Virus record (IMG/VR): IMGVR_UViG_3300043466_002653
Location: 1 to 54,275 of that record
From: a virus
Taxonomy: Duplodnaviria > Caudoviricetes
Length of the DNA stretch: 54,275 bases
Strand: one strand, 5' to 3'
In this document: positions 21,457 through 45,064 of the stretch, in pieces
Layout: each line of letters opens with the position of its first letter
How positions within the stretch are numbered: position 1 is the stretch's first letter
Position numbers and translations under genes: made by a program
Notes under the pieces: model-generated
What the model saw: only the letters and a program-made list of their open reading frames with translations
Told to the model about the DNA's origin: nothing
Databases searched by the model: none

Positions 21457-22875
21457 ATGAGTCCTTTATTCCGTAACTATAGCGTAATAGGAATATTTCT
21501 TTCAAGCGATATACCAACACCAACACCAACACCAACACCAACACCAACGCCTACTCCAACTCCAACACCGACCCCAACTCCCACACCAACACCTACTCCA
21601 ACACCAACCCCTACACCTACTCCTACACCAACACCAACACCTACACCAACACCGACCCCTACACCAACACCAGCGTATGATGGTGGAATATGTTCTGCTT
21701 CAGATGTAACAAGTGGAGTTTCTGGATGTAATGTTATAGGAGATTGTTCTGCAATAGGAAGCCAGGGAGGATGTTTCCTTGTTCCATCAGGTGGTTCTGT
21801 TTCTTTGACTGGAAATACTTTAGAAGGAAGTACAATAACAGCAACTACGCTTGGTTGGAGTTCTATACCAACCTCTTATAATGTATTTATTACTGTTACT
21901 AGAAATGGTACTGTGCCAACAGCATTAAGCGAAGTTGTTGCTTCTTCAGCAGGATCTAACTCTGTTACAGCAACTATAGAAACAATTGTTGGACAAGCAC
22001 CTAAATACAGAGCATTTGCTACTGCTACTAACTCTACAGGAACATCTACTCCTGCTGTTATATCACCAGAAATAATTACAGCAACAGCAACCCCTACCCC
22101 AACACCAACTCCAACACCGACCCCTACACCAACACCAACACCTACTCCAACACCTACTCCAACACCAACACCTACACCAACACCGACCCCTACACCAACA
22201 CCAGCGTATGATGGTGGAATATGTTCTGCTTCAGATGTTTCTAACGGAGTTTCTGGATGTACTCAGTCTGGAGTTTCTTGTTCTGTACAAGGAAGCCAAG
22301 CAGGTTGCTTTGTTCCTCCTCCTGCTCCATCAGGCGGATCTGTTTCTTTGACTGGAGATAGCGTAGTAGGAAGTACTATCACAGCAAGTACATCTGGTTG
22401 GGCAAACACACCAACGTCTTACAACGTATTTATTACAGTTTCTAGAACTGGAAGTGCCCCTGGTCCAACAAGCGAACTTGTTGCTTCTTCAGCAGGATCT
22501 GCTTCTGTTACAGCAACCATAGAAGCAATTGTTGGACAAGCCCCTATATACAGAGCCTTTGCTACTGCAACAAATAGTACAGGAACATCTAGCCAAGTTT
22601 CTTCTGGTACAATTACAGCAACGGCACCTCCTCCGTTCTTCCCTCCGTTCTTCCCACCTTTCTTCCCACCATACTTTGCCCCAGCACCTACACCAACGCC
22701 TACCCCAACACCTACACCAACGCCTACCCCAACACCTACACCAACGCCTACCCCGACACCAACGCCAGTTGCACCTACAACATATCAATGCTCTGGCGCT
22801 GATGTTTCAATGGGAGTTCCTGGGTGTAGTTTTATAAACGCTTGTTCTGCTTTTGGAAGCAAGGGACCATGTTAA
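21457..22875 (+). CDS. Pro/Thr-repeat protein with Cys-rich and Ig-like domains
   Basis: (PT)26, (PT)18 and (PT)13 tracts, PPFF repeat, duplicated domains. Confidence 0.8.
21514..21672 (+). repeat. (Pro-Thr)n coding tandem repeat
   Basis: CCN-ACN hexamers; further tracts at 22090-22203 and 22687-22767. Confidence 0.95.
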
Positions 22876-30101: not shown

Positions 30102-33100
30102 ATGGCAACAGTAAATAAAGATTTTAAGATTAAGCAAGGACTGATTGTTGAAGGATCAACAGCAACAGTAGCAGGCAATGACATTCTTACGAAGAATGAA
30201 GCATCAGATAACTACATCATTGATCTTATTGGTGGAGAAACACTAATCACATCTGTTGAATCAACACAGATGGAAGTTGTTTCTGGCGAACTAAATATTA
30301 AATCAGGTGTATTTGATGCATCAGGTGCAGCAGCATCAGCCCAGTCTGCAGCAGAATCAACTGCTTCAGGATATGTAACAACACACGCAAACCTTACAGA
30401 AGCCCATGGCGCAACAGGTGCGGTAGTTGGAACAACCAACACACAAACACTAACTAACAAGACTTTAACTTCTCCAGTAATTAATACACCTACTGGAATT
30501 ACAAAGTCAGATGTAGGACTTGCAAATGTTGATAATACTTCAGATGCCAATAAGCCAGTTTCAACCGCTACACAGACAGCATTAGACCTTAAGGCGAATC
30601 TTAATTCACCAACATTTACAGGAACAGTAACACTGCCTGCAAACACAATTTCACAATCAATGATGGCCGATGACTCAGTTGGAACTAATGAAATTGGTGG
30701 TCTTGCAGTAACAACTGCAAAGATTGCTGATGCAGCAGTTACATCAGGTAAACTTGCTACATCTCTTGACTTGGCTGGAACACCTACTGCTCCTACAGCA
30801 ACTGCAGGAACAAACAGCACTCAGATTGCAACAACTGCATACGCAGACGCAGCAGTAGCAGCACTTGTAGGTGGAGCACCCGATCTTCTAAATACTCTTA
30901 ATGAGTTGGCAGCAGCACTTGATGATAATCCAGATGTTATTGGTGATCTTCAAGATATTGCAGCAGGAAAGCAAGATACATTAACTGCAGGCGATAACAT
31001 TGACATTACAGGAGCAACAATTTCTGTAACTGGTCTTGTAGCAGCAGATATCTCTGATTTTGGTTCAGCATCACAAACAGCAAATATCGGATACTACGAT
31101 CCAGCAGGCTCAGCAGAGACAGCACAAGAAAATGCTGAAAACTATGCAGATGGGCTTGCAGTTAACTATGATGCAGCAGGTTCTGCTTCAACAGCACAGA
31201 CTAATGCTGAATCTTTTGCTACAAATGCAATTAATGCTCTTGACACAGACGACATTGAAGAAGGAGCGGCACAATACTTTACAGATGTTCGTGCTAAGTC
31301 TTCAGCAGCAGATCTTTTGACTGGTGCAAATCTTACAAACATTACAATTACAGGAACAGGATCAGGACTTACTATCACTGCAGAAAACGGTGTAGCAGGT
31401 TCTACAACAACTGACCTTTCAGAAGGTACAAACCTTTACTTTACAGACGAAAGAGCACAAGATGCCATTGGAAACAATGTTGGAACTGGTCTTTCCTATA
31501 ATAATACAACAGGTGCAGTATCTGTAACAGAAAATACTTATGATGCATATGGTTCAGCATCAACTGTAGCAGGAAATCTTTCAAATCATACAAGCGCAAC
31601 AGAAGCACACGGTGCAACTGGAGCGGTAGTAGGAACAACAAATACTCAAACACTTACAAATAAGACATTGACAAGCCCAACTCTTACAACTCCAGATCTT
31701 GGCGTTGCTACTGCTACATCTATTAACAGTACAACGATTCCATCATCAAAGACTCTTGTTGTAACAACAGATAAGTTAAACGTACTTGCAGCAACAAGTT
31801 CATCAGAACTTGCTGGTATCATCTCTGATGAAACTGGTACTGGAGCACTTGTTTTTGCTGATACCCCAACACTTGTAACACCAATTATTGGTGCTGCAAC
31901 TGGTACATCCCTTGAACTTTCATCAAACGATCTTGATGTTGGTTCTCAGTCTGCTGGATTAAGAATATCAGACGGCTACGTAAACCCAATGGCCGTATTC
32001 TCTATGGATGCAGATGATGATTACGCACAAGTAGTAATTAAGAACACTGGCAATGGCGTAAATTCTTCTTCTGATATCCAAGCATACTCAGATAATGGTA
32101 ATGATACCACTGGTGGTTGGATTGACATGGGTATTACTTCAAGCAACTTTGCTGATGCAAGTTTTACAATCACTGGCAAAAATGATGGTTATATCTTTAT
32201 GGAAGCCCCTGAAAGTACAACTGGTAATGGAGATCTTGTTCTTGCTACTGGTGCCAACGGTGCACAAAACAGAATTGTTTTTGCTGCTGGAGGACTTTCT
32301 TCAGATAATACACAAATGACAATTACACCAGATGAGTCTGTAAGAATTGTTATTGATACCGCTTCAACATCACCATCAACTGGTGCTCTTGTTGTAGATG
32401 GTGGCGTTGGTATTCAAGGTGACGTTAATATTCAAGGTAACATCACATTTGGTGGTGCAGGAACAAGCCTTACAACTGAAAACTTAGCAGTTACAGATCC
32501 ACTCATCTTTGTTGGTGATGGAAATGCATCAGATGCTGTCGATATGGGTCTTATTGCAGAATACAAAGAGTCCTCTACTACAAAATACGCAGGTATTGTT
32601 CGTGATGCCAGTGATGGAGTATTTAAACTTTTTGAAGATGCAACAACAAAACCTACTTCAACTGTAAACTTTTCTGAGGCTGGTTTAGGATATGGAGATC
32701 TACGGGTAGATGAAATTACCGCAGCATCTGCAGTTATAACTAATATAACAATTGGAACAGTTGATCAAACTGAGATTGCTCACCTAAATGGCGTAACTTC
32801 AGCAATTCAAACTCAATTAGATGATAAGTCAACTGCCTCAAAAACAGAAACACTTACAAATAAAACAATTGATGGTGCAAATAACACTATTACAAATGTT
32901 GCTATAAGCACAGGAGTATCAGGTCTTGGAACTGGCGTAGCAACATTCCTTGCAACACCATCTTCTGCAAATCTTGCATCAGCAGTAACTGATGAGACAG
33001 GAACAGGCGCATTAGTATTTGCTAATACACCAACTCTTGTAACTCCAGAACTTGGAGCCGCAACTGGAACAAGCATTGCTTTCCCAGATGCTTTAGTTGG

Positions 33101-33401
33101 ATCTGCAACTGGAACAGCAGGAACATCAGCAACAACAATTGATACATGGTCAGCAACTACATACTCTGCTGCTAAATATTTTGTCCAAATGAAAAAGGAC
33201 AATGATATTGAAGTAATTGAAATGCTTGTTGCAGTAGATGGAAACAACAACGTTTATGTTACAGAATATGGTAATGTTGTAAGCAACGTAGAACTTGGAA
33301 CAACAAATGCCGTTTATAGCGGTGGAAATGTTCTTCTTCAAGTAACTGCTGCTGCAGCAGGAACAAGCGTTAAGGTTTCAAAAACATATATTGAAGCATA
33401 A
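30102..33401 (+). CDS. long tail fibre protein
   Basis: TQTLTNKTLT, VGLANVDNTSD, PTAPTA..NSTQIATTA, LNTLNELAAAL, NLYFTDERA and DETGTGALVFA modules. Confidence 0.85.
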   Translation: MATVNKDFKIKQGLIVEGSTATVAGNDILTKNEASDNYIIDLIGGETLITSVESTQMEVVSGELNIKSGVFDASGAAASAQSAAESTASGYVTTHANLTEAHGATGAVVGTTNTQTLTNKTLTSPVINTPTGITKSDVGLANVDNTSDANKPVSTATQTALDLKANLNSPTFTGTVTLPANTISQSMMADDSVGTNEIGGLAVTTAKIADAAVTSGKLATSLDLAGTPTAPTATAGTNSTQIATTAYADAAVAALVGGAPDLLNTLNELAAALDDNPDVIGDLQDIAAGKQDTLTAGDNIDITGATISVTGLVAADISDFGSASQTANIGYYDPAGSAETAQENAENYADGLAVNYDAAGSASTAQTNAESFATNAINALDTDDIEEGAAQYFTDVRAKSSAADLLTGANLTNITITGTGSGLTITAENGVAGSTTTDLSEGTNLYFTDERAQDAIGNNVGTGLSYNNTTGAVSVTENTYDAYGSASTVAGNLSNHTSATEAHGATGAVVGTTNTQTLTNKTLTSPTLTTPDLGVATATSINSTTIPSSKTLVVTTDKLNVLAATSSSELAGIISDETGTGALVFADTPTLVTPIIGAATGTSLELSSNDLDVGSQSAGLRISDGYVNPMAVFSMDADDDYAQVVIKNTGNGVNSSSDIQAYSDNGNDTTGGWIDMGITSSNFADASFTITGKNDGYIFMEAPESTTGNGDLVLATGANGAQNRIVFAAGGLSSDNTQMTITPDESVRIVIDTASTSPSTGALVVDGGVGIQGDVNIQGNITFGGAGTSLTTENLAVTDPLIFVGDGNASDAVDMGLIAEYKESSTTKYAGIVRDASDGVFKLFEDATTKPTSTVNFSEAGLGYGDLRVDEITAASAVITNITIGTVDQTEIAHLNGVTSAIQTQLDDKSTASKTETLTNKTIDGANNTITNVAISTGVSGLGTGVATFLATPSSANLASAVTDETGTGALVFANTPTLVTPELGAATGTSIAFPDALVGSATGTAGTSATTIDTWSATTYSAAKYFVQMKKDNDIEVIEMLVAVDGNNNVYVTEYGNVVSNVELGTTNAVYSGGNVLLQVTAAAAGTSVKVSKTYIEA

Positions 33402-33936: not shown

Positions 33937-35214
33937 ATGGCAACAAGAATGCAACAGCGTAGAGGTACTGCAGCACAATGGACTGCAGCAAACCCAACTT
34001 TAGCAGCAGGCGAAATCGGTTTTGAGACAGATACAAACAAGTTTAAAATGGGTAACGGTTCTTCAAACTGGGTTGCGCTAACATATTTTGCTAATAACTC
34101 AGCATTAACAGACCTCCTTACAGGATCCCCAGAGGCACTAAATACCTTGGATGAAATTGCAGCAGCAATTAATGATGATCCAGCATTTTTCACAACAATA
34201 GCAACAAACTTATCAACTCATGCATCTGATACAACATCTATTCATGGAATTACAGATACAGCGCTACTTGCAACACAGTCATATGTTGCAGATCAAATTG
34301 CTTCAGTAACAGGAGACTATTCAACTCTTGCTGGTGTAGGAATTGACTGGAATGCTGATACAGATGCGTTTGATATTGCTAATACTGTAGCAACTACAGC
34401 AAATATAACTGATCATAACGCCGATACAACAGCAGTTCACGGTATTGCAGATACTTCACTTCTTGCAACTACAGCAAATGTATCAACTGCTCAAACTGCA
34501 GCAGAGACTACAGCATCTGGATATGTAACAACACATAATTCAGCAACAACAAATGTTCACGGAATTGCAGATACTGCAGTATTAGTTACAACAACTGGAA
34601 CACAAACTTTAACAAATAAAACAATTACATCTCCTGTAGGAATTACAAAGACAGATGTAGGCCTTGGAAGTGTTGATAATACAGCAGATGCAGATAAGCC
34701 AGTTTCAACTGCACAGGCTACAGCAATTTCAACTGCTAAAACAGAGGCTATTGCAGATGCAACCGCTCAGGTAACTGCAGTTCTTGATAGTGCTCCAGCA
34801 GCACTAAATACTCTTAATGAACTTGCTGCAGCACTTGGCGACGACGCTGATTTTGCAGGAACAATAACAACAAGTCTTGGATTAAAGGTAGACTCACTAA
34901 CACCAATTAGTGCAAAGACAGCATCATATACACTTTCATCATTAACTGAAAGAGATGATTTAATTGAAATGTATTCAGCATCAGCAGGAATAACTCTTTC
35001 AATCCCAACAGATGCTACATTAGATTATCCAATTGGAACATCTATTGATATTCTTCAAACTGGAGCAGGACAGGTAACAATCGCAGCGGTTACACCTGGA
35101 ACTACAACAGTTAACTCAACACCTGGCTTAAAACTTCGTGCACAATGGTCATCTGCAACTCTCTTTAAGAGAGCAGCAAATACATGGGTTGTCTACGGCG
35201 ACTTGACAGCGTAA
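33937..35214 (+). CDS. tail fibre with Mtd/hyaluronidase-type N-terminal domain
   Basis: RRGTAAQW..ANPTLAAGEIGFETDT.KFK.G.G; C-terminal WVVYGDL. Confidence 0.85.
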   Translation: MATRMQQRRGTAAQWTAANPTLAAGEIGFETDTNKFKMGNGSSNWVALTYFANNSALTDLLTGSPEALNTLDEIAAAINDDPAFFTTIATNLSTHASDTTSIHGITDTALLATQSYVADQIASVTGDYSTLAGVGIDWNADTDAFDIANTVATTANITDHNADTTAVHGIADTSLLATTANVSTAQTAAETTASGYVTTHNSATTNVHGIADTAVLVTTTGTQTLTNKTITSPVGITKTDVGLGSVDNTADADKPVSTAQATAISTAKTEAIADATAQVTAVLDSAPAALNTLNELAAALGDDADFAGTITTSLGLKVDSLTPISAKTASYTLSSLTERDDLIEMYSASAGITLSIPTDATLDYPIGTSIDILQTGAGQVTIAAVTPGTTTVNSTPGLKLRAQWSSATLFKRAANTWVVYGDLTA

Positions 35215-35246
35215 TACAAAATTCAATAAGAAACTAGGAGAATAAC

Positions 35247-36545
35247 ATGGCAGCAGGAAAAAAAGCAGGTAGAAAGTCTCAAGCGTCTAACGACTTCTTA
35301 GAGCCTTTAGCACCAACAGGTGCTACAGCAACAAACGTAGGAACAGCAAGAGCCTTTAATAATGGTTCAGCAACCGTTTCTTTCTCTCTACCAGCACTTT
35401 CTCCAGCAGCCACATCCTTTACAGCCACATCTTCTCCTGGAGGATACACTGCAACTGGCGCTAGTTCACCACTTACAGTAACTGGTCTTCAATCTAATAC
35501 TGCATATACATTTACAGTAACAGCAACAAATGCTGCAGGAACATCCGCTGCTTCAGCAGCATCTGCTTCAATTACTGCAACAACAGTTCCAGCAACACCT
35601 TCAGCACCAACTGTAACTACACAGGTTAATCAGGATAACGTTTCTTGGTCTGCCCCAGCAACTGGTGGATCTGCAATTACTGGATATACTTGGGCATCTT
35701 CTGATGGCAAGGGTGCAACAGTAGGATCAGCAGTAATAACTGCTGCAGTTACACAAGAAGGCGGAACTGCTCAGACCTATACTGTTTATGCAACAAATGC
35801 TAATGGTAACTCTGCAGTATCTCCAGCATCTAACTCTGTTACCACTACCCCACCATTCTTCCCACCGTTCTTTCCACCGTTCTTTCCGTTCTTTCCACCA
35901 TTCTTCCCACCATTCTTTCCGTTCTTCCCATTCTTTCCACCATTTTTCCCACCATTCTTTCCACCTTTCTTTCCACCATTCTTCCCATTCTTCCCATTCT
36001 TCCCACCTTTCTTCCCACCATACTTCCCATTCTTTCCTAACTTTTATGGAAACCTTGGTTGTATTGAAGCAGAGACTGAGTTACTTACTCCAACTGGTTT
36101 AGTTAAGGCTAAAGATCTTCAAATTGGAGATACAGTCTACTCAATAGACCTAAATGAGATGGGTCCAGACGAAGAAGACACATACATGCTATGGAGTTCA
36201 AACTCCTTAACAGCAAAAACTGCAGGATACGTAGAGGCTACAATTACAAACATTAGTCTTTCTGTTAAAGACAAGGTAGTATTCTTTAATAATAATAGAT
36301 CAGCCTCGTACTCTCTTACACAGCCAATCTTTATTAAAGACGCAGAAGGTACGTTTGGAATGAAAATTTCTTACGACATATGTGTTGGAGATACGCTAAT
36401 CAAAATACTTGCTGATGGATCAATAACAGAAGAGTTGGTAATCCGTATAGGATACACAGAACTTCCAGAAATATCAACTTACGCTATCTCTGTTGAACCG
36501 TATGACTGGTTTATCGCTGGTGGATTCTTAGTTCACAATAAGTAA
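35247..36545 (+). CDS. FN3 - (PPFF)n - Hint domain protein
   Basis: Two FN3 domains (GLQSNTAYTFTVTATN), 63-aa Pro/Phe tract, C-terminal Hint domain. Confidence 0.85.
   Translation: MAAGKKAGRKSQASNDFLEPLAPTGATATNVGTARAFNNGSATVSFSLPALSPAATSFTATSSPGGYTATGASSPLTVTGLQSNTAYTFTVTATNAAGTSAASAASASITATTVPATPSAPTVTTQVNQDNVSWSAPATGGSAITGYTWASSDGKGATVGSAVITAAVTQEGGTAQTYTVYATNANGNSAVSPASNSVTTTPPFFPPFFPPFFPFFPPFFPPFFPFFPFFPPFFPPFFPPFFPPFFPFFPFFPPFFPPYFPFFPNFYGNLGCIEAETELLTPTGLVKAKDLQIGDTVYSIDLNEMGPDEEDTYMLWSSNSLTAKTAGYVEATITNISLSVKDKVVFFNNNRSASYSLTQPIFIKDAEGTFGMKISYDICVGDTLIKILADGSITEELVIRIGYTELPEISTYAISVEPYDWFIAGGFLVHNK
35850..36038 (+). repeat. Pro-Phe coding repeat (PPFF/PFF)
   Basis: 63 codons encoding only P, F and one Y. 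Confidence 0.95.
36060..36539 (+). other. Hint (Hedgehog/intein-like) autoprocessing domain
   Basis: Begins G|CIEAETELLTPTG..AKDLQIGDTV, ends FIAGGFLVHN followed by one Lys. Confidence 0.85.
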
Positions 36546-36553
36546 TAAAAGAT

Positions 36554-36589
36554 AATACCCCCTTAAAGAAAAATCTAAAAGGGGGTATT
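36554..36589 (+). terminator. intrinsic terminator
   Basis: AATACCCCCTT...AAGGGGGTATT followed by a T-rich tract. Confidence 0.7.
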
Positions 36590-36639
36590 TCTTTTTCATA
36601 AAATATGGTATCATTAGTTATAGAGAAAAAAGGGACAAC

Positions 36640-37380
36640 ATGAATTATCATACTTTGCCAGAAGCAAATATTAACGATGAAAACTCTAACCACTGGTTTA
36701 CAAAAGATAGATCAGAAACAGCATCAAACAGAATTCCTAATAGACAACTAGATGAAAATATTGTTGTTGAAAATCTTGGACTAGGTTTGCATGTCTACCA
36801 TGATACATTTTCTTTAGATGATGCCAACAGATATATAGAAACTCTTGAGTCAAATTTAGGAAAAAATGGAAAATATAGTTGGTCAGAAGCACAAGTAACA
36901 AACTCTTCAACGCCAATTAAAAAGGCAAGAGACTGCGTAGACTTTAAATATAAACAAGAAAATTTAGGGCCTAAAAATGATACTAATTCAGAATTAATAG
37001 ATTTGCACGAAGAAATATATCAAAAACTTAAGTATTGCATTGATGATTATGCAAAGTACTGGGGTATCAATGTAGTATATTATGAGGCCTTTAACTTTGT
37101 TAAGTATGAAGGAGAAGGCACACACTTTAATATTCATGCAGACCATGGACCAGCCTACAACTGTACAGTGTCTGCTGTAATATATATCAACGATGATTAT
37201 AAAGGCGGGGATTTAAAATTCCCACGATTAGACAATCTTATTATTAAACCAAGAGTAGGAGATATAGCGGTATTTCCATCAAACTATATTTATGAACATG
37301 CCTCACTACCAATGGAGTCAGGAACAAAGTACTGTGTAGTTGTTATGACAGATATTAATGAGATAGGTCATAAGAAATGA
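36640..37380 (+). CDS. 2OG-Fe(II) oxygenase, P4H-like
   Basis: HAD, YINDDYKGG, FPSN, HAS and KY motifs. Confidence 0.9.
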   Translation: MNYHTLPEANINDENSNHWFTKDRSETASNRIPNRQLDENIVVENLGLGLHVYHDTFSLDDANRYIETLESNLGKNGKYSWSEAQVTNSSTPIKKARDCVDFKYKQENLGPKNDTNSELIDLHEEIYQKLKYCIDDYAKYWGINVVYYEAFNFVKYEGEGTHFNIHADHGPAYNCTVSAVIYINDDYKGGDLKFPRLDNLIIKPRVGDIAVFPSNYIYEHASLPMESGTKYCVVVMTDINEIGHKK

Positions 37381-38153
37381 GCATAAAATCTAATCTTGTT
37401 ATTTTTAAATCATACAGACCATGGCTAAATAAAAAAAGTTTATCTATTCCAGAACCAACACAGAATGTAATTCCTGAGTGGTATAAAGATGCAGATAGAT
37501 TTGCAAAAATGCCAAATGGAGAATATTGGAAAGCAACAAAAGAAGTTTGTCCATTTCCAAAAGAAGGAACAACAGATGATTTTGGTAAAATTCCTACATG
37601 GAAAGCATGTCCAGCAATCCTGGATGCATTTACAACAGGATATATATTTAAAACCCCATGCGATTTAATATTTTTTAAAAACAGTCAGGGAGTTATTAAT
37701 GTTAAAATTGAAGATGAAAAATATAAAGATTTTTGTACTCAAAGGCCTCCAATGCCACAGTTTGAACATCCCAAAGGATATTATCAAAACCATTTTGCCT
37801 GGAATTCAATTTGGGGTTTAGAGTTACCAGAAGGCTATAGCACATTGCTTATGACCCCAATGAATAGGTTTGATCTTCCTTTTTTAAATACTACTGGTGT
37901 CGTTGATTCTGATAAAGTCCATCTACTTGGAAGTTTTCCATTTTTTATTGTAGATGGATGGGAAGGAACTATTCCAGCAGGAACACCATATATGCAAGCA
38001 CTTCCATTTAAAAGAGAAAACTGGGAACATCAAATAGACATCCTGGATCAGTCTAAAATTTATGATAAAGTTAATAATAACGTAAAGTTTTACCGTCAGC
38101 CTGACGGCGGGGTATATAAAAATAAAATTTGGTCAAGAAGAGAATATAGATAG
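37377..38153 (+). CDS. hypothetical protein, DUF6065-related
   Basis: IPEWYK, KACPAILDAFTTGY and GTPYMQALPFKRE motifs. Confidence 0.6.
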   Translation: MSIKSNLVIFKSYRPWLNKKSLSIPEPTQNVIPEWYKDADRFAKMPNGEYWKATKEVCPFPKEGTTDDFGKIPTWKACPAILDAFTTGYIFKTPCDLIFFKNSQGVINVKIEDEKYKDFCTQRPPMPQFEHPKGYYQNHFAWNSIWGLELPEGYSTLLMTPMNRFDLPFLNTTGVVDSDKVHLLGSFPFFIVDGWEGTIPAGTPYMQALPFKRENWEHQIDILDQSKIYDKVNNNVKFYRQPDGGVYKNKIWSRREYR

Positions 38154-38162
38154 GGATAAACT

Positions 38163-38819
38163 ATGCAAACATGGACAGAAAAACAAGACCTTGGCAATGG
38201 AATCTTTTGCTACAAGGGAGTAATTAAAAAAGAGATTGATGTTATAGGTAGGATTGAATCCAACCTCAAACCAGTAGGAGATACATCTGGATATGCATGG
38301 CAACCAGCGTATGTTGGTTATCAGCAATTAATGCCAGAATACCGTGACTGCAATGATTTTAAGTTTAAAAAAACAGATATAGAAAATGATAAAAGCAAGA
38401 TTAGTCTAAACCTTCAGTCTTTGTGGCAAGACTTGTATGATGTTAAACTGCCTGCGGTTGAAGACTACTCAAGAATGTATAATATTAATAATTTAAAGTA
38501 CTGGGAGGCGTTTAACTTTATTAAGTACGGCCCAGGACAACACTTTATGGAACATCATGATCACGGATTTTCATATAACTGTACTCTTTCTTTGGTTGCA
38601 TATCCGAATGATGACTACGAAGGAGGAGAACTTTTCTTTAGATTACAAAATCTAAAAGTTAAAGCAGATGCTGGAGATCTTTTTATTTTTCCATCAAACT
38701 TTATGTATCCTCATCAAGCAATGCCAGTGACTTCTGGAACCAAGTACTCTATTGTTACTATGTTAGATTATAGTAAAAAGTTCCACACTCAAGAAATGTA
38801 TAATGCAGAGGCCGACTAA
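38163..38819 (+). CDS. 2OG-Fe(II) oxygenase, P4H-like
   Basis: HHD, NDDYEGGELFF, FPSN, HQA and KY motifs. Confidence 0.9.
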   Translation: MQTWTEKQDLGNGIFCYKGVIKKEIDVIGRIESNLKPVGDTSGYAWQPAYVGYQQLMPEYRDCNDFKFKKTDIENDKSKISLNLQSLWQDLYDVKLPAVEDYSRMYNINNLKYWEAFNFIKYGPGQHFMEHHDHGFSYNCTLSLVAYPNDDYEGGELFFRLQNLKVKADAGDLFIFPSNFMYPHQAMPVTSGTKYSIVTMLDYSKKFHTQEMYNAEAD

Positions 38820-39547
38820 TGTTTAAAATTTCAGTTGAAAAAACACAAGGATGTTCTTTTGTTGTTCAACCAATGTCAATAAAAAGAGATTGGATGGAAG
38901 AAACATCAGAAGGGCATGCATATAGATGTTTTCCAGTAACACAATCAAACGTTATTGGTTGGAGCCTTTCTTGTATTAATGATATAGAGTTTATCTGGGA
39001 CGGTATTAATGATCAAAGCCCAGACCACATTGATATAATAAAAGCACCTGAAGGATCTTACGAAGGAAGAGGTCAATCATCTATTAGTTTTCATACTGGT
39101 TTAATTTTTAGAACTGAAGAAGAAGTTAGTCTTTTTACCATAAACCCTGTAAACTATTTTAGTGATGATTTTGAAACAATGTCTAACCTAATCAGCACAT
39201 CATTCTACGACAATCCACTTCCACTAGCAATTAAGGCAAGAAAAGCAAATGAAAAAATAACAATAAAGGCTGGAACACCAATAGCAACAATAATTCCAAT
39301 ATCTTTGACTAACTTAAATAATAGTACAATAGAAATTGTTGATTATAAAGATCCAGATAGATCAAGAATTGAGTCAAATATTGCTTATGGAGAAGCAGCC
39401 CAAGTTGTTAATTCTTCTGGTCAGTGGACAGATTGGTATAGAGATGCAGTAAATGAAAAACAAGAGTCTTTGGGTAGCCATGAAGTAAAAGTTTTAAAAC
39501 TTAAAGTAGAAGATAATACTAAAAATAGATTGGGTGGTATAATTTAA
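38819..39547 (+). CDS. DUF6065-like protein
   Basis: RDWMEET...HAYRCFPVTQSNVIGW; GTPIATIIP. Confidence 0.65.
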   Translation: MFKISVEKTQGCSFVVQPMSIKRDWMEETSEGHAYRCFPVTQSNVIGWSLSCINDIEFIWDGINDQSPDHIDIIKAPEGSYEGRGQSSISFHTGLIFRTEEEVSLFTINPVNYFSDDFETMSNLISTSFYDNPLPLAIKARKANEKITIKAGTPIATIIPISLTNLNNSTIEIVDYKDPDRSRIESNIAYGEAAQVVNSSGQWTDWYRDAVNEKQESLGSHEVKVLKLKVEDNTKNRLGGII

Positions 39548-39549
39548 AC

Positions 39550-40221
39550 ATGAACAACTTAGACAATGTAGTGGTTAGAAAACCTTCAATGACTCCTTCT
39601 GGATGGTTTGGAGATAGCAAAGACATGATCGTTGAGTTAGAAAACTTTATGACTCAAGAAGAGATGGACTTTTTAGAAAAGGCTGCAAAATCTTTAACTA
39701 TTTGGGACGTAACACAAAGCCATGTAAACGAAAATGGAACAGTTGTTTATGATTCAGATTATTGGAAAGACAGAGTTGCTACTCAACCAACATTAGATAA
39801 AAATGATCCCTCTATATCTCCAATAATCGCTGGATTATTTAAAAGACTAAAGCCAATAATTGAAGAATTTTATAAAGTAGAGGTCACCCCAACTGGAACA
39901 ACTATTGTCAAATGGCTTCCAGGACAATTTCAAAGACCTCACGCAGACAAAGAACTGCATGATGGACCAGATGCTGGATTACCAAACGACTTTCCAAACT
40001 ATGACCTATCAAGTTTATTTTATTTAAATGAAGACTATGAGGGTGGAGAACTATATTTTCCTCTACAGGGAGTACAGTTTAAACCTAAAAAGGGTGCTGC
40101 TTATTTTTTCCCAGGAGACAAAAACTATATTCACGGAGTAACAGAAATAAAAAGTGGATTAAGGTTTACATGCCCTTTCTTTTGGGAAATTACAAAGCAC
40201 ACTGGAGACAGGAAGCCATAA
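39550..40221 (+). CDS. 2OG-Fe(II) oxygenase, P4H-like
   Basis: HAD, YLNEDYEGGELYF, HGV and RF motifs. Confidence 0.9.
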   Translation: MNNLDNVVVRKPSMTPSGWFGDSKDMIVELENFMTQEEMDFLEKAAKSLTIWDVTQSHVNENGTVVYDSDYWKDRVATQPTLDKNDPSISPIIAGLFKRLKPIIEEFYKVEVTPTGTTIVKWLPGQFQRPHADKELHDGPDAGLPNDFPNYDLSSLFYLNEDYEGGELYFPLQGVQFKPKKGAAYFFPGDKNYIHGVTEIKSGLRFTCPFFWEITKHTGDRKP

Positions 40222-40222
40222 A

Positions 40223-41095
40223 ATGACTAATAAAAATCTTGAAGCAGTAGAAATATATCCTAATATTATTGTATATAAGAATATGTTTAAAGATATTTCA
40301 AAGTCATACAAAGTTTTAACAGATTCTTTAATTGAGACAGAAGATAGGGTTTTTAGTCCTTGGACACAATGGTCTATTTTTGGAGACTACCTAAATCCAA
40401 TAGTTCCTATTTTTTCTATGTCAGAAAAGTTTGGAAATTTAAAAAATATAGAAACAACCACACAAGTTCAAGAAGATCAAAAAAACTTTGCTATTGAAAT
40501 GATGGAAAACTTTCATTTAGTTACAGAAGACTATATTAAAACCTACGGCATTGATGTAGACTTAAATGCAACATCTATTAATGAATTAGGTGAGACGGTT
40601 CCTACTTGGAGATGGACTGGTGGAACAATTGGAAAATACCATGTAAGTAATGAAACTGAAAAACATGGTATGAGATATCACTCAGATTATATGCCAGAAC
40701 AAGGACAAGCCCCAGGATACAAATTTATAATAACCTGTACAATTTACTTTAATGATGACTATGAGGGTGGAGAGGTTGACTTTGTTATGGGAGATAAACT
40801 TGTAAAGTACAAGCCAGAAGCAGGAGACCTTTTAGTTTTTCCATCAGGGCATCCAGAATATCTTACAGAAGAAGGAAAGCCTTACCTTCACGGAGTAATG
40901 CCCTCATATAATAAAAATAAATTTTTATCAAGAATGTATTGGCAAAAATACCAAAGTGGAACAGATGAGTGGTATAAAAAAGAAAAAGAATTTGGCAAAG
41001 AAACTTGGCTTGAAATGCAACCAGAACTAGAAAAAGAATTTAGAAAAAAGTACCCACAAAGATCTGAAATAGAAAATGGAGTAAGACTGTCATGA
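40223..41095 (+). CDS. 2OG-Fe(II) oxygenase, P4H-like
   Basis: HSD, YFNDDYEGGE, FPS, HGV and KF motifs. Confidence 0.9.
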   Translation: MTNKNLEAVEIYPNIIVYKNMFKDISKSYKVLTDSLIETEDRVFSPWTQWSIFGDYLNPIVPIFSMSEKFGNLKNIETTTQVQEDQKNFAIEMMENFHLVTEDYIKTYGIDVDLNATSINELGETVPTWRWTGGTIGKYHVSNETEKHGMRYHSDYMPEQGQAPGYKFIITCTIYFNDDYEGGEVDFVMGDKLVKYKPEAGDLLVFPSGHPEYLTEEGKPYLHGVMPSYNKNKFLSRMYWQKYQSGTDEWYKKEKEFGKETWLEMQPELEKEFRKKYPQRSEIENGVRLS

Positions 41096-41847
41096 ATCTA
41101 AATAATAAAAAAAGATTAACAAAAGATATAGTAGTTTATGAAAACTTTATAAGCAAAGAAAATTGTGTAAAAATGATACAGGCTTTAGATGCTCAAGCAA
41201 ATAATGGTGGAATTACCTGGATGCCTATTTCATTCTATGAGTCATACTCTTCCATATTGCCACAAGATAATGATCAAGAATTAATCGATGCTGGATTATC
41301 TCCTACTATTTTTTCAGATATTGAAAAAATAATGCCAGAAGCAATTGCTTCAGTACACGATCTTGACCCAAAAACAATTTCTAAGATTGGATACCATACA
41401 CAAAAGTGGGAACCAGGAGCGTATGCAAGAGTGCACTCAGATAATACAGATGCTGAAGGAAAGTCTGGAGCATTTACAAGAAGTCGATACGCTGGATTTC
41501 TTTACTTAAATGATGACTTTGAAGGTGGTCTATTAAAGTTTCCAGATCAAAACATAGAGATTAAGCCACAAGTTGGAATGCTTGCTGTTTTTGACGGGGG
41601 ATTTAATAATATGCATGAAGTATCATTGATTGAAAGTGGAGTAAGATACACCATAGGATCTTTCTGGGATGACAGAGAAGAGTCTGATTATCCACAAGAA
41701 TTAAGAGATGCTTGGGCAGCAGAAATGAAAGAGACAAGAGCGCAACAAGAAATTGAAAGAGCAGAGTGGCAAGACCTGCTTAAGCAAGGCTGGAAATTAG
41801 ATGCAGATGGAAAAAAGTATAAGATAGAAGATGGTAAAAATGATTGA
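41092..41847 (+). CDS. 2OG-Fe(II) oxygenase, P4H-like
   Basis: HSD, YLNDDFEGG, HEV and RY motifs. Confidence 0.9.
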   Translation: MNLNNKKRLTKDIVVYENFISKENCVKMIQALDAQANNGGITWMPISFYESYSSILPQDNDQELIDAGLSPTIFSDIEKIMPEAIASVHDLDPKTISKIGYHTQKWEPGAYARVHSDNTDAEGKSGAFTRSRYAGFLYLNDDFEGGLLKFPDQNIEIKPQVGMLAVFDGGFNNMHEVSLIESGVRYTIGSFWDDREESDYPQELRDAWAAEMKETRAQQEIERAEWQDLLKQGWKLDADGKKYKIEDGKND

Positions 41848-42499
41848 ATCTTTTAAGAAGCAGTTGTTTGATAAAGGTTATTCTATTGAAGAAATTACTC
41901 CCCAATTAATATCTGTTGAAAACTTTTTATCAAAAGAGCAGTTAGAAGATTTTGCTAGTATTATAAATAATACTTCACAAGAAGATTGGGAAGTAGAATA
42001 TCATGCTAATTTAGCAAAATTTTGTATAGAAAAGTTTGGAAGAAGCGACGTAGATAATTTAGTTGCAGAAGGAAAATTTGAAATTACTCAAAACTGGAAA
42101 GATAAAAATTTTAATATAAGTAAACAACCTGTCATTAAACCACTCTATAAAGGTTTAAACTCAATGGTAGTAAGTTCAGATCCAGAACTTCATTTAAGTG
42201 GACTGGCAACAATTCAAAGAATGCAACATGGGGTAGAGTTAAAATCACATACGGACCAACACACAGACCCATCTATTAGATATGCTACAATTATTTATCT
42301 AAATGATGATTATGTAGATGGTGAACTGTTTTTTCCAAAGTTAGGTATAGAATTAAAACCTAAAGCAGGAACGCTAGTATTTTTTCCAGGCAATGAAGAA
42401 TACGAACATGGAGTTAAACATGTAGGAGAAGGACAGATTAGATATGTTCTTGTTGGCTTTATTAAAGAAAAAGATCACTACAAAAAGAATAAGTACTAG
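41840..42499 (+). CDS. 2OG-Fe(II) oxygenase, P4H-like
   Basis: HTD, YLNDDYVDGELFF, HGV and RY motifs. Confidence 0.9.
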   Translation: MIESFKKQLFDKGYSIEEITPQLISVENFLSKEQLEDFASIINNTSQEDWEVEYHANLAKFCIEKFGRSDVDNLVAEGKFEITQNWKDKNFNISKQPVIKPLYKGLNSMVVSSDPELHLSGLATIQRMQHGVELKSHTDQHTDPSIRYATIIYLNDDYVDGELFFPKLGIELKPKAGTLVFFPGNEEYEHGVKHVGEGQIRYVLVGFIKEKDHYKKNKY

Positions 42500-42509
42500 G
42501 GGGAATAAA

Positions 42510-43244
42510 ATGAATAAAGAAATATTAGATCCAAAGGTTTACTATTACACAGATGCAATAGATAACTTTGATAAGTTTCAAAGCACCTTAAAAGAATTAG
42601 ATTCTCTTGAGTCAAGTAATGAGTTTGGTGTAAACATTTGGAATCCTTGGACATCTTCTAACGATAAAACTTTTATTTATGGTGAGACAAAAACATTTGA
42701 TATTAATTCAATAGGCAGAGTAAGTGGAGAAGTTGGAGAAAAAAGCAAATATATTTACGATGCAATAACAACTACTCTTTATAATGTTTGTAAAGATTAT
42801 GCCACATCACTTGGAGACTTTGATGAGCCAAGACTTTTTCCAACTTTTAATATAAAAAAATACAATACTGGAATGGGCATGGGCGCACACTTTGATCAAT
42901 TAGATGGAGATAAAACTTTAAGGTATTCTCTTGTAATGTATTTAAATGATGATTGCGAAGGCGGAGAAATATCTTTTCAATTAAAAGATTATGATGGTGG
43001 TTGGACAAGCGCAGATGGATTTTCTAAGGGAGTTGCACCAGCAGTAGATTTAGATTATGATGTATCTGTTGCAAATGGAGCAATTGATTTTGGACTAAAG
43101 CCAAAAGCAAATAGCGTTATTATATTTCCAGCATTTCCTCCATACTTTCATACAGCACATATTGTAAAGTCTGGTTTTAAATATATGGTACCTGGACATT
43201 GGATTCATAATGGAATGGATCTTAACAAATCTCAGGGTATGTAA
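42510..43244 (+). CDS. 2OG-Fe(II) oxygenase, P4H-like
   Basis: HFD, YLNDDCEGGE, FPA, HTA and KY motifs. Confidence 0.9.
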   Translation: MNKEILDPKVYYYTDAIDNFDKFQSTLKELDSLESSNEFGVNIWNPWTSSNDKTFIYGETKTFDINSIGRVSGEVGEKSKYIYDAITTTLYNVCKDYATSLGDFDEPRLFPTFNIKKYNTGMGMGAHFDQLDGDKTLRYSLVMYLNDDCEGGEISFQLKDYDGGWTSADGFSKGVAPAVDLDYDVSVANGAIDFGLKPKANSVIIFPAFPPYFHTAHIVKSGFKYMVPGHWIHNGMDLNKSQGM

Positions 43245-43913
43245 ATGAAAACAGCAATAGTCACAGGAGCCAGTAAAGGGGTTGGCTATGCAACAGTCAA
43301 ACTTTTATCTGAAAATGGATATAGGGTTATTGCTGTTTCAAGAGACCTGTCTAAAGTATCAAACCTGATTAGCGATAGTGTTGAAGTCTATCAAATGGAT
43401 ATAACCAATGCTAGTGAAATTAAACAATTCTATGATAAGTATAGTGATATAACTTTAGACCTGCTAGTAAATAACGCTGGTGGTGGTGCTGGTCCAACAT
43501 ACATTATAAATGAGACAATGGACAACTTTAGAAGAGCATATGATATAAACGTCACTGGCCCCATGTATCTTTCTCAATTGTTTGTGCCTTCCATGAAGAA
43601 GTCTGACTCTGCTACAATTATTTTTATAACATCTCTATGTGGCAAAATTCCATTTAGAGGTGGAGGAAACTATAGTAATGCAAAAAGAGGAGAGATGGCA
43701 TTGATAGATACTATGAGAATGGAGTTTCCAGAGTATGGGGTCAAAGTAACAGAAATTTGTCCAGGTACTATAGATACTCAAACTGAAAAGAAAGAAAATG
43801 CCCTAACTGCAGAAGATCTTGCAGAGTCCATTAGGTGGGTTGGATCTCTTCCAAAACATTTGAATATAAATCATTTAGAATTAAGTCATATAAATAATAG
43901 TAAGTTTAATTAG
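43245..43913 (+). CDS. short-chain dehydrogenase/reductase (SDR)
   Basis: TGASKGVG, NNAG and YSNAK motifs. Confidence 0.9.
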   Translation: MKTAIVTGASKGVGYATVKLLSENGYRVIAVSRDLSKVSNLISDSVEVYQMDITNASEIKQFYDKYSDITLDLLVNNAGGGAGPTYIINETMDNFRRAYDINVTGPMYLSQLFVPSMKKSDSATIIFITSLCGKIPFRGGGNYSNAKRGEMALIDTMRMEFPEYGVKVTEICPGTIDTQTEKKENALTAEDLAESIRWVGSLPKHLNINHLELSHINNSKFN

Positions 43914-43919
43914 GAAAAT

Positions 43920-44486
43920 ATGAAAATAAATAAACTCCACGAAGATGTGTATGAAGTAGAAGAGTTCTTAACAGAACAAGAACTTTTTGATGTTTATGCC
44001 ATAATTAACAATACTCCAGAAGAAGATTGGTTTGATAAATCAGCCAAAGACCAAAACAATACTCCAGATTTTTGGTATGGAAAAAACCTATACTTTACGT
44101 CGGCAAATGTTTTTGATTCTATAAATGATAAAATGAGAAATCTTTTTGAGTCATACTCTTATTATCCTGATAAAACACATCTTCAAAGATATAAAAAGGG
44201 GGATTTTATTAAACATCATGCAGATCAATGGATTCCAGATCTTCCATACTATATAGGCTATGGCTTTTGTTTATATTATAACAACGACTATTCTGGCGGT
44301 GAATTAGACTATCCAGATTTAAAAATTACAATTAAGCCAAAAGCAAATGCACTATATATTCATGGAGGACACATAGTTCATGGATCACTTCCAGTACTAG
44401 ATGATACAATAAGATACTTCTCAACTGTGTTTATACGCGGAACAGAAGAATCTCCAACCATACTAAAGAGAGAGTTGTTTAAATAA
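43920..44486 (+). CDS. 2OG-Fe(II) oxygenase, P4H-like
   Basis: HAD, YNNDYSGGEL, HGS and RY motifs. Confidence 0.85.
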   Translation: MKINKLHEDVYEVEEFLTEQELFDVYAIINNTPEEDWFDKSAKDQNNTPDFWYGKNLYFTSANVFDSINDKMRNLFESYSYYPDKTHLQRYKKGDFIKHHADQWIPDLPYYIGYGFCLYYNNDYSGGELDYPDLKITIKPKANALYIHGGHIVHGSLPVLDDTIRYFSTVFIRGTEESPTILKRELFK

Positions 44487-45064
44487 TGCATAACAAAACA
44501 CATCAAGAGCAGTTTATAATTGATATCTTAGGTAAAAAGAAAAATGGATATTATGTAGAATTAGGTGCAGCACACTATAGCAATGGTAATAATACTTTTT
44601 TGTTAGAGCAAGAGTATGATTGGACTGGAGTATCATTTGAAATAGTTGATTCAATGAGAGATGAGTTTAACGCTAATAGAAAAAATCCTTGCATGGGTGA
44701 TGCACTTTCTTTTAACTATGTCGACTATTTTGAAAAAAATAACTTTCCAAAGCAGATTGATTTTTTACAATTAGACATAGATGCTGGGTATGACAATTAT
44801 GGAAGACCAGTTGGAAATAGCCATTGGACACTTCAAGGATTAATAGCAATACCACTAAACACTTATAGATTTACTTTAATTACTTTTGAGCATGATGCAA
44901 ATATGTATTGGAGAAATGATTCAATTAGAGATGCACAAAGAGAAATTTTAGATTCTTTTGGATATTCATTAGTTCATAGATCTTTTCATGAAGATTGGTG
45001 GGTTGATTCAAGAGTTATTGGCCACGGGGAATATAGAGACTATCTACACTGGCAAACTTTGTAA
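44486..45064 (+). CDS. FkbM-family methyltransferase
   Basis: GYYVELGA, NNTFLLE..W.GVSFE, IDFLQLDID, ITFEH and EDWWV motifs. Confidence 0.8.
   Translation: MHNKTHQEQFIIDILGKKKNGYYVELGAAHYSNGNNTFLLEQEYDWTGVSFEIVDSMRDEFNANRKNPCMGDALSFNYVDYFEKNNFPKQIDFLQLDIDAGYDNYGRPVGNSHWTLQGLIAIPLNTYRFTLITFEHDANMYWRNDSIRDAQREILDSFGYSLVHRSFHEDWWVDSRVIGHGEYRDYLHWQTL

Follow-up and report, generated by a model that had tools for sequence, protein, structure and literature searches.

A predicted BIL-type Hint domain ends a Pro/Phe-tailed fibre-module protein of lake phages and may act as a self-removing cap

Known Hint domains include inteins, Hedgehog processing domains and bacterial intein-like (BIL) or pretoxin modules. 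BIL domains without a nucleophile at the residue following the domain (+1) are described, in the part of one account that deals with them, as giving mainly N- and C-cleaved products (PMC7664689), and the corresponding part of a review has A-type BILs cleaving but unable to ligate (PMC7765530). The BIL2 domain of Tetrahymena, according to the passages on its chemistry, passes its thioester to the ε-amine of a lysine to give an isopeptide bond (PMC8616854). The domain considered here closes a protein encoded in the viral record IMGVR_UViG_3300043466_002653 (Caudoviricetes), which was analysed over its whole length of 54,275 bases (the window; completeness ~49% by CheckV). The open reading frame (ORF), at 35247..36545 on the + strand, starts with ATG and encodes 432 residues; the opposite strand holds no comparable ORF. 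A conserved N-terminal peptide, two fibronectin type III (FN3) domains, a Pro/Phe tract and a short linker precede the Hint domain, and a single lysine follows it (Table 1). All 80 related viral loci have an orthologue, and in each it lies behind tail-fibre genes. The best explanation by homology, to which we give a probability of roughly 0.6, is that the Hint domain is a BIL-type cap that would remove itself from a fibre-module protein. A sequence-only reading of the same DNA had already set out this anatomy, with FN3, Cys1, a terminal His-Asn, a lone Lys after it and a Gly-Cys junction, and translation of the ORF together with domain scans bears it out.

Identity of the end domain

As a single sequence the end domain matches Pfam Intein_splicing with an E value of only 0.017 (15.4 bits against a cutoff of 35.8), and phmmer of the Hint part against the PDB gave matches at chance level only. 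An exhaustive phmmer search gave 197 cluster representatives, less than 50% identical to each other, at E<=1e-3, 48 of them at E<=1e-10. When a 34-member family profile was compared with the PDB the best match was the BIL domain of C. thermocellum (2LWY, E 7.8e-14), followed by the KlbA intein (1.6e-10) and then many other inteins, with Ser356-Leu-Thr-Gln359 aligned on T-F-D-H of 2LWY. Scanned member by member, 17 of the 34 match Intein_splicing and 4 match PT-HINT. The AlphaFold model of the domain, built with the 34-member alignment, has a predicted local distance difference test score (pLDDT) of 94.8 and a predicted template modelling score (pTM) of 0.89. It shows the horseshoe-like all-beta fold of the HINT superfamily. 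Foldseek returned 55 solved chains at E<=0.001, of which those listed are all inteins, BILs or Hedgehog domains; Tetrahymena BIL2 is at the top (6y75, E 1.3e-7), followed by inteins, 2LWY and Hedgehog (1at0/6tyy), with template modelling (TM) scores of up to 0.80. Since the family profile and the predicted fold settle what the single sequence cannot, the end domain is assigned as a genuine Hint domain of, by these comparisons, BIL type.

Several details of the domain are consistent with this assignment. Cys272 supplies the first-residue Cys or Ser of the HINT superfamily. As in A-type BILs, the domain ends in His-Asn (His430-Asn431), the +1 residue is not a nucleophile, Lys432 being followed directly by the stop codon, and the setting is a hypervariable part of a non-conserved protein, the end module changing between orthologues and the N-terminal parts differing between Hint-bearing proteins. 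Block B, typically Thr-x-x-His, is here Ser356-Leu-Thr-Gln359, with Gln replacing the usual His. The +1 Cys, Ser or Thr and the C-extein of a canonical class 1 intein are absent, as Lys432 alone follows Asn431, and so is a conserved insertion site, the flank being a low-complexity tract of 42-187 residues in the orthologues. Alleles without the Hint domain do not read on beyond it but have different ends. Neither is there a sterol- or adduct-recognition region of the Hedgehog/Hog kind, the protein stopping one residue past the Hint domain, and no Pfam family of the Peptidase S74 chaperone type was found in the whole protein at E<=0.01.

Active-site conservation and the proposed chemistry

Cysteine stands at position 1 in 81 of the 82 family matches that cover the N-terminal end of the domain, the lone exception (P0002) being a register slip by one residue. 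In a MAFFT alignment of 130 rows this column holds 92 Cys, 2 Ser, 6 other residues and 30 gaps. Such near-invariance across the family supports Cys1 as a probably active nucleophile. Block B follows the pattern [Ser/Thr]-x-x-[Gln/His], with Ser or Thr in 128 of the 130 rows and Gln (72), His (52) or Glu (6) at its last position, and Asn348, in an 'FN' motif eight residues before block B, is invariant (130/130). At the other end of the domain His430 is kept in 96 rows and Asn431 in 93. Among the 135 matches that cover the C-terminal end 98 finish in His-Asn; the remaining 37 have VIS (12), VIA (5), VVS (3) or other endings.

With this degree of conservation it seems quite improbable that the Hint fold has been kept as a stable, non-cleaving binding or structural domain at the tip of the protein, its catalytic look being a relic. 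The block B His is Gln in this protein, Hint ends alternate in the orthologues with clearly non-catalytic end modules, and two relatives have Ser at position 1 and no His-Asn, all of which would fit such a domain. A relic, however, would not have retained Cys1 in 81 of 82 matches (92 of the 100 non-gap rows), nor the block B Ser/Thr, the terminal His-Asn and a lysine at +1 or +2 at the frequencies found across representatives that are less than 50% identical. In the two Ser1 relatives (L054:7995-9374 and L056:7995-9323) the Hint domain lies at the same position in the gene; these may be N–O shift forms or inactive forms.

What follows the Asn is usually short. Exactly one residue is found in 46 of the 98 His-Asn forms, 2-6 in 26, 7-30 in 16 and more than 30 in 10. 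The +1 residue is Lys in 64, with Leu (7), Ala (5), Tyr (4), Arg (4) and others making up the rest, and Ser and Thr occurring once each. Lysine is at +1 or +2 in 89 of the 98 and within +3 in 92. A lysine within ten residues before Cys1, on the other hand, is found in 18 of 21 forms without the terminal His-Asn (mostly as F-K...K) as compared with 3 of 50 His-Asn forms (Fisher p 4.8e-11, uncorrected for relatedness). As both junctions meet at the Hint active site, the lysine would adjoin the predicted thioester in both groups. The strict His-Asn-Lys and the complementary placement of the lysine suggest that it is either ligated onto Gly271 or catalytic, and the placement bears on whether these domains ligate or only cleave. 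A subset of members (P0029, P0033, P0040, P0046, P0054, P0067, P0100 and L045:2603-3907) has a short conserved tail, K-x-x-F-(Q/H)-G-P-T-x-x-D, after His-Asn-Lys, which would be a real mini C-extein if the forms that bear it ligate. On the other side of the domain, the 30 residues upstream have a median fraction of Pro, Phe, Tyr and Trp of 0.53, and 48 of 79 members reach 0.5 or more, the exceptions being mostly members with large domains after His-Asn-Lys.

The gene, its domains and fold, how the family is conserved, where the gene lies and how its end modules are exchanged are shown here; from these we infer the following chemical steps, virion location and role of the tail. The conserved N-terminal peptide and the two FN3 domains would form the constant body of a modular fibre-associated protein. 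After folding, Cys272 would attack the carbonyl of Gly271 in an N–S acyl shift to give a thioester, and resolution of this would allow the 160-residue Hint domain to depart. The mature protein would then end in its Pro/Phe tail and resemble many of the Hint-less orthologues, in which short tails often contain a lysine. His430-Asn431 and the conserved Lys432 would presumably take part. Either cyclisation of the Asn would free the lysine to be joined to Gly271, in a BIL-type reaction without a side-chain nucleophile or through an isopeptide of the kind made by Tetrahymena BIL2, or the lysine would merely assist hydrolysis. The sequence-only reading took normal splicing to be impossible, and N-terminal cleavage or ligation to a nucleophile to be more likely. 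This agrees with what is described for the closest known relatives, and the near-invariant Cys1 supports an active nucleophile; autoprocessing itself stands as a prediction, made for a protein with Gln in block B.

A more specific version is rather unlikely: Lys432 would be a built-in acceptor, taking over the thioester that the Hint domain makes at Gly271 either through its ε-amine while still attached or through its α-amine after Asn431 has cyclised. If true, the mature fibre protein would have a lysine-capped, possibly isopeptide-linked, Pro/Phe tail, and relatives without His-Asn would close a small C-terminal lactam ring via the lysine 3-9 residues upstream of Cys1. This would be a new, enzyme-free route by which phages tailor the ends of virion proteins, and it may act together with the adjacent array of genes resembling collagen-type prolyl and lysyl hydroxylases.

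The Hint domain might instead stay on the virion as a latent thioester generator, a one-shot tip that transfers Gly271 covalently to an outside amine or hydroxyl, on a virion protein or the host cell wall, by a Hedgehog- or BUBL-like ligation. The fold matches include Tetrahymena BIL2, which in the part of the source concerned conjugates its N-terminal flank to lysines of other proteins without E1, E2 or E3 (PMC8616854), and Hedgehog is described as attaching cholesterol via the same first step (PMC7664689). The gene also lies at the variable, host-facing end of the fibre module, where the end modules swap like receptor-binding tips. Such a tip nonetheless seems very doubtful. No candidate acceptor was identified, the protein stops one residue past the Asn without an adduct-recognition region, and transfer to an outside nucleophile does not need the conserved His-Asn, while a conserved lysine next to the active site makes a partner within the protein likelier than one outside it.

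Several observations weigh against a self-removing cap. Autoprocessing is predicted from homology and conservation, for a domain whose single sequence falls under the Pfam cutoff of every Hint family. Inteins strain the scissile bond with the block B His; here, as in 72 of the 130 rows, that position is Gln (Gln359), and activity with Gln is assumed. The lysine pattern is uncorrected for relatedness, and the forms without His-Asn, which mostly end in ...VIS or ...VIA, may be one clade. If only N-terminal cleavage mattered, the strict retention of His-Asn-Lys would be left unexplained, and ligation to the lysine would be a minor route by precedent, because A-type BILs, in the relevant parts of the two accounts, cleave without ligating (PMC7765530) or mostly cleave (PMC7664689). 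Of the complete unique orthologues 52 of 60 do not have the Hint domain, so it is unneeded for the basic role of the protein and could be a passenger. The RNA-library contigs described below cover the gene just partly and may be DNA carry-over.

If the cap does cleave as predicted, it would represent a new route of phage fibre maturation, and the family would provide compact thioester generators of 160 residues with a single-residue C-terminal flank, usable in protein ligation.

Swapped ends, the Pro/Phe tract and the neighbouring genes

The 82 orthologous ORFs represent 64 unique sequences, 60 of which are complete. The FN3 pair and the tract are constant amongst them while the end varies: 26 of the 60 have a cysteine-rich tail, 17 a short tail, often with Lys, and 8 a Hint domain, with 6 ending within the tract and 3 in some other way. 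Position 1 is Cys or Ser in each of the 8 unique orthologues that end in a Hint domain. A tree built from the FN3 part (65 rows; 61 labelled orthologues) requires at least 16 changes of end type, and the 9 Hint rows need 7 changes, as compared with a mean of 8.6 for shuffled labels, 23 of 500 shuffles being as low. The cysteine-rich end is a tail of 20-45 residues with 6-9 cysteines, for example ...SYCWQACPSCCGSCGC (L008, L017, L023, L025, L029, L064 and others), possibly a disulfide knot or a metal site.

The same Hint cap also ends long non-FN3 proteins (~730-1000 residues) in a second set of loci, and several phages carry two capped proteins. L099, L104, L113, L115, L123 and L138 each have an FN3 form of ~430 residues and a form of ~850-920 residues without similarity to FN3, whilst L095 has two Hint-capped FN3 forms in one locus. 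In the L099 and L115 pairs a near-identical junction, ...IPWFGPP/CVEENTL, is seen in both proteins. The repeat before the Hint domain is FGFTP- or FNFTP-like in place of PFF-like in L090-L094, L100, L106-L107, L148 and L152-L155.

The scatter of Hint ends amongst the orthologues, with 7 changes for 9 rows, and the lower G+C of the Hint part (0.36) than of the FN3 part (0.45) would fit a selfish or decaying mini-intein-like insert near the 3' end, tolerated through self-removal and without a role for the phage. This is highly improbable. The domain, at 160 residues, has no homing endonuclease and no +1 nucleophile, and because its flank is a low-complexity tract there is no conserved insertion site in a host protein; low G+C also extends over the whole region downstream. 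That the Hint domain and Pro/aromatic repeats regularly occur together, in proteins of 280-1000 residues which are otherwise unrelated and differ in their N-terminal parts, points to a functional cassette.

The body of the protein is well predicted. The full-length AlphaFold model has a mean pLDDT of 84.3, and its best solved matches are tandem FN3 pairs (neogenin FN5-FN6 and titin), aligned over ~200 columns. Pfam fn3 (PF00041) matches residues 36-106 with E 6.4e-8 (33.1 bits against a cutoff of 25); the second beta-sandwich (111-201) scores just 15.8 bits, under that cutoff. The N-terminal peptide, which contains a short helix at residues 12-16 in the model, may be a docking segment.

Table 1. 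Features of the Hint-capped gene and its surroundings. Positions are those of the window.
Feature	Position	Strand	Remarks
Whole gene: FN3x2, Pro/Phe tract, Hint	35247..36545	+	432 codons plus stop
Conserved N-terminal peptide, residues 1-23 (MAAGKK...NDFLEPLAP)	35247..35315	+	alignment consensus ..K..G..S...NDFL.P.AP
FN3 domain 1, ~residues 24-110	35316..35576	+	Pfam fn3 above cutoff; pLDDT >90
FN3 domain 2, ~residues 115-200	35589..35846	+	Pfam fn3 below cutoff; pLDDT >90; model matches tandem FN3 pairs
Pro/Phe tract, residues 202-264, 63 residues	35850..36038	+	identical in L082-L086
Linker NFYGNLG, residues 265-271; Gly271 = -1 residue of predicted scissile bond	36039..36059	+	
Hint (BIL-like) domain, predicted, Cys272 to Asn431, 160 residues	36060..36539	+	PDB profile, AlphaFold, Foldseek, column counts
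Cys272 = Cys1 of Hint, directly after Gly271	36060-36062	+	
Asn348	36288-36290	+	family-invariant
Block B, Ser356-Leu-Thr-Gln359	36312-36323	+	
His430-Asn431, end of Hint	36534-36539	+	
Lys432, sole residue after Hint (+1), then stop	36540..36542	+	
Hairpin then U-rich run, right after stop codon	36546..36600	+	terminator-like; RNA fold
Short Pro/Phe tract inside PT-repeat, cysteine-module protein 21457..22875	22627..22677	+	
PF13640 2-oxoglutarate/Fe(II) (2OG-Fe(II)) oxygenases, seven above cutoff	starts 36640, 38163, 39550, 40223, 41092, 41831, 42444		between 36640 and 43244
Weak eighth PF13640-like gene	43920		
DUF6065 protein	38819		
Short-chain dehydrogenase	43245		
Two ORFs without Pfam family	37377, 44486		

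The tract was read correctly from the sequence alone, down to its length of 63 residues. Its composition is 33 Phe, 29 Pro and 1 Tyr, in ten PPFF, six PFF and one PPYF unit. Phe is encoded by TTC (24) or TTT (9) and Pro by CCA (22), CCG (4) or CCT (3), and as the DNA units differ mainly by synonymous codons the repeat is kept at the protein level. That it might be an assembly artefact, which would have undone the sequence-only reading, was checked. Tract and linker are identical in protein sequence in five other viral contigs, L082-L086 (93-99% identity over the Hint part), and Logan contigs from two other lake-water runs (X4 and X6) tile 35181-36700, the pieces listed showing 0 differences. 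Being unchanged in the former and tiled exactly by the latter, the tract is no artefact. In X4 and X6 the repeat is broken into short pieces, as is expected of repeats in a de Bruijn graph, and the high summed depth of Logan contigs across it stems from tracts of other phages. Slightly altered versions are present in L015 and L087. Two further open frames run across the tract, at 35788-36102 (+, another frame; 104 residues, His/Ser-rich) and at 35845-36030 (-; 61 residues, Gly/Arg/Met-rich); these are by-products of the repeat, not genes.

In the full-length monomer model the tract has a pLDDT of 40-53 and no secondary structure, which speaks neither for nor against a polyproline-type or oligomeric form. 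A homotrimer prediction with three copies of residues 190-271 scored 0.00 (mark 0.42), run without controls and so no evidence either way. In the preferred reading the tract would be a flexible, very hydrophobic spacer or tail, although it could also be a sticky element or a hydroxylase substrate. The earlier idea of a self-assembling tip or membrane contact finds nothing here in its favour, the tract being unstructured in the monomer model and also serving, in Hint-less orthologues, as a spacer ahead of other end modules. The motif is reused, exactly as had been noted, in the protein at 21457-22875, whose 472 residues are built from long (PT)n linkers and a cysteine-bearing module that occurs three times, with an Ig-like stretch after each of the first two copies. 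The short tract sits between the second Ig-like stretch and the last PT linker, and its position among PT linkers suggests that PPFF and PT are interchangeable as linkers.

In the metatranscriptome X18, contig pieces lie over 35276-36314 with 1-16 differences, one of them bridging the junction of tract and Hint domain, and contigs of X20 cover 36023-36315. These contigs record presence in an RNA library rather than proven transcription; they show neither ends nor level, and the uncovered parts carry no meaning.

Upstream of the gene, the ORFs at 30102..33401 and 33937..35214 are tail-fibre proteins by PHROGs and Pfam, and of the 80 related loci 62 and 76 have homologues of these two fibres ahead of the FN3-tract gene. 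The second fibre has an Mtd_N-type start (E 3.4e-15) and ends in ...VVYGDLTA. PHROGs has no family for the whole 432-residue protein, and no cultured phage matched 33000-39000 by Megablast. The portal has its closest counterparts in large Streptomyces phages (46-48% identity), suggesting an actinobacterial host for this widespread lake phage lineage. The stop codon is followed at once by a hairpin with a folding energy of -22.4 kcal/mol (z -5.57), equalled by none of 200 shuffles, although a pattern scan gives the same stem on the minus strand only. The hairpin resembles a terminator, and the FN3-tract gene thus closes the tail-fibre unit.

Behind the hairpin a tandem array of genes, mostly 2OG-Fe(II) oxygenases, spans 36640-45064, the first two oxygenases lying at 36640..37380 and 38163..38819. 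The two genes nearest to the Hint gene have weak best matches amongst solved structures, to a Bacillus prolyl 4-hydroxylase (E 1.4e-4 and 1.3e-3) and the procollagen lysyl hydroxylase LH3 (~1e-3), the matches ranging from E 1e-4 to 3e-3. Homologues of the oxygenase genes lie downstream of the FN3-tract gene in 54-71 of the 80 related loci, while 74 of 83 Hint ORFs have an oxygenase-like ORF in their locus and 71 of the 80 orthologous loci contain one. Tandem dioxygenase arrays in phages are described in part of one paper as first seen in cyanophage Syn9, with a role still open (PMC2938197). The Pro/Phe tail might be a substrate of the array, and we offer this as a lead rather than a finding: synteny within one lineage is not independent evidence, and the terminator-like hairpin parts the fibre unit from the oxygenase unit. 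Moreover, L090-L094 and L100, with FGFTP-type repeats, have no oxygenase-like ORF in the locus or one ~8 kb from the full-length Hint ORF, except that a 62-residue Hint fragment at the edge of the L100 locus is 630 bp away from such an ORF. The L106 and L148 loci contain none; in L107, L153, L154 and L155 the nearest is 0.6-8 kb away and in L152 it is 9 bp from the Hint ORF.

Comparison with known systems

Full-text literature searches gave no paper on Hint-capped Pro/Phe fibre proteins and no functional description of them. Papers on phiCbK and CBB that mention a 'Hint domain' concern terminase or ribonucleotide reductase inteins only. Family members in the databases carry automatic names only. 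UniProt entries from uncultured Caudovirales, labelled 'Hint domain containing', 'Fibronectin type III' or 'PASTA_pknB domain containing', match with a TM (query) of 0.84-0.90 in BFVD, and a 'putative phage tail protein, contains intein domain' of Phage NCTB (LT598654) has a C-terminal Hint domain too, with 28% identity over 99% of the domain by tblastn. A large phage-borne Hint subfamily that caps the Pro/aromatic repeat tails of fibre-module proteins is apparently undescribed in print.

Phage tailspikes and fibres may carry self-cleaving C-terminal intramolecular chaperone domains of the Peptidase S74 type. These follow the same logic as the cap proposed here, a C-terminal fibre module that is absent from the mature fibre, but their fold and chemistry are unrelated and the likeness is functional. 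Fibres of Alteromonas phages are described, in the part of the source concerned, with 'transient chaperone caps' (PMC10579305).

Hedgehog/Hog domains (1AT0, 6TYY) resemble this domain in that the Hint part lies C-terminal to a released cargo and the first acyl shift suffices, with a TM (target) of 0.79-0.80. They differ in sequence (12% identity), and the domain here has no sterol-recognition region and ends in His-Asn. The BUBL BIL2 of Tetrahymena thermophila (6Y75, 6TMM), the top Foldseek match, is a direct precedent for a lysine acceptor, as far as the part of the source on its chemistry goes (PMC8616854). It belongs, however, to a eukaryotic polyubiquitin-like locus with ubiquitin-like domains on both sides and zinc-dependent activation, and is only 14-16% identical; here the N-terminal flank is the Pro/Phe tract and the sole residue of the C-terminal flank is Lys432.

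Closest is the A-type BIL of C. thermocellum (2LWY), which shares the Hint fold, Cys1, the C-terminal His-Asn, the absence of a +1 Cys, Ser or Thr and the absence of an endonuclease. Both are in variable parts of non-conserved proteins, which for BILs are surface proteins. The structural alignment gives a TM of ~0.67-0.79 with just 18% identity. Unlike the A-type BIL, the domain here sits at the extreme C-terminus of a phage fibre-module protein, with a 'C-extein' of one residue and a conserved lysine after His-Asn; the block B His is often Gln, Asn348 is invariant and a Pro/aromatic repeat almost always precedes it. The feature is real, by these comparisons a BIL-type Hint domain in a new setting and with hallmarks of its own, and we infer its mechanism from those of its relatives.

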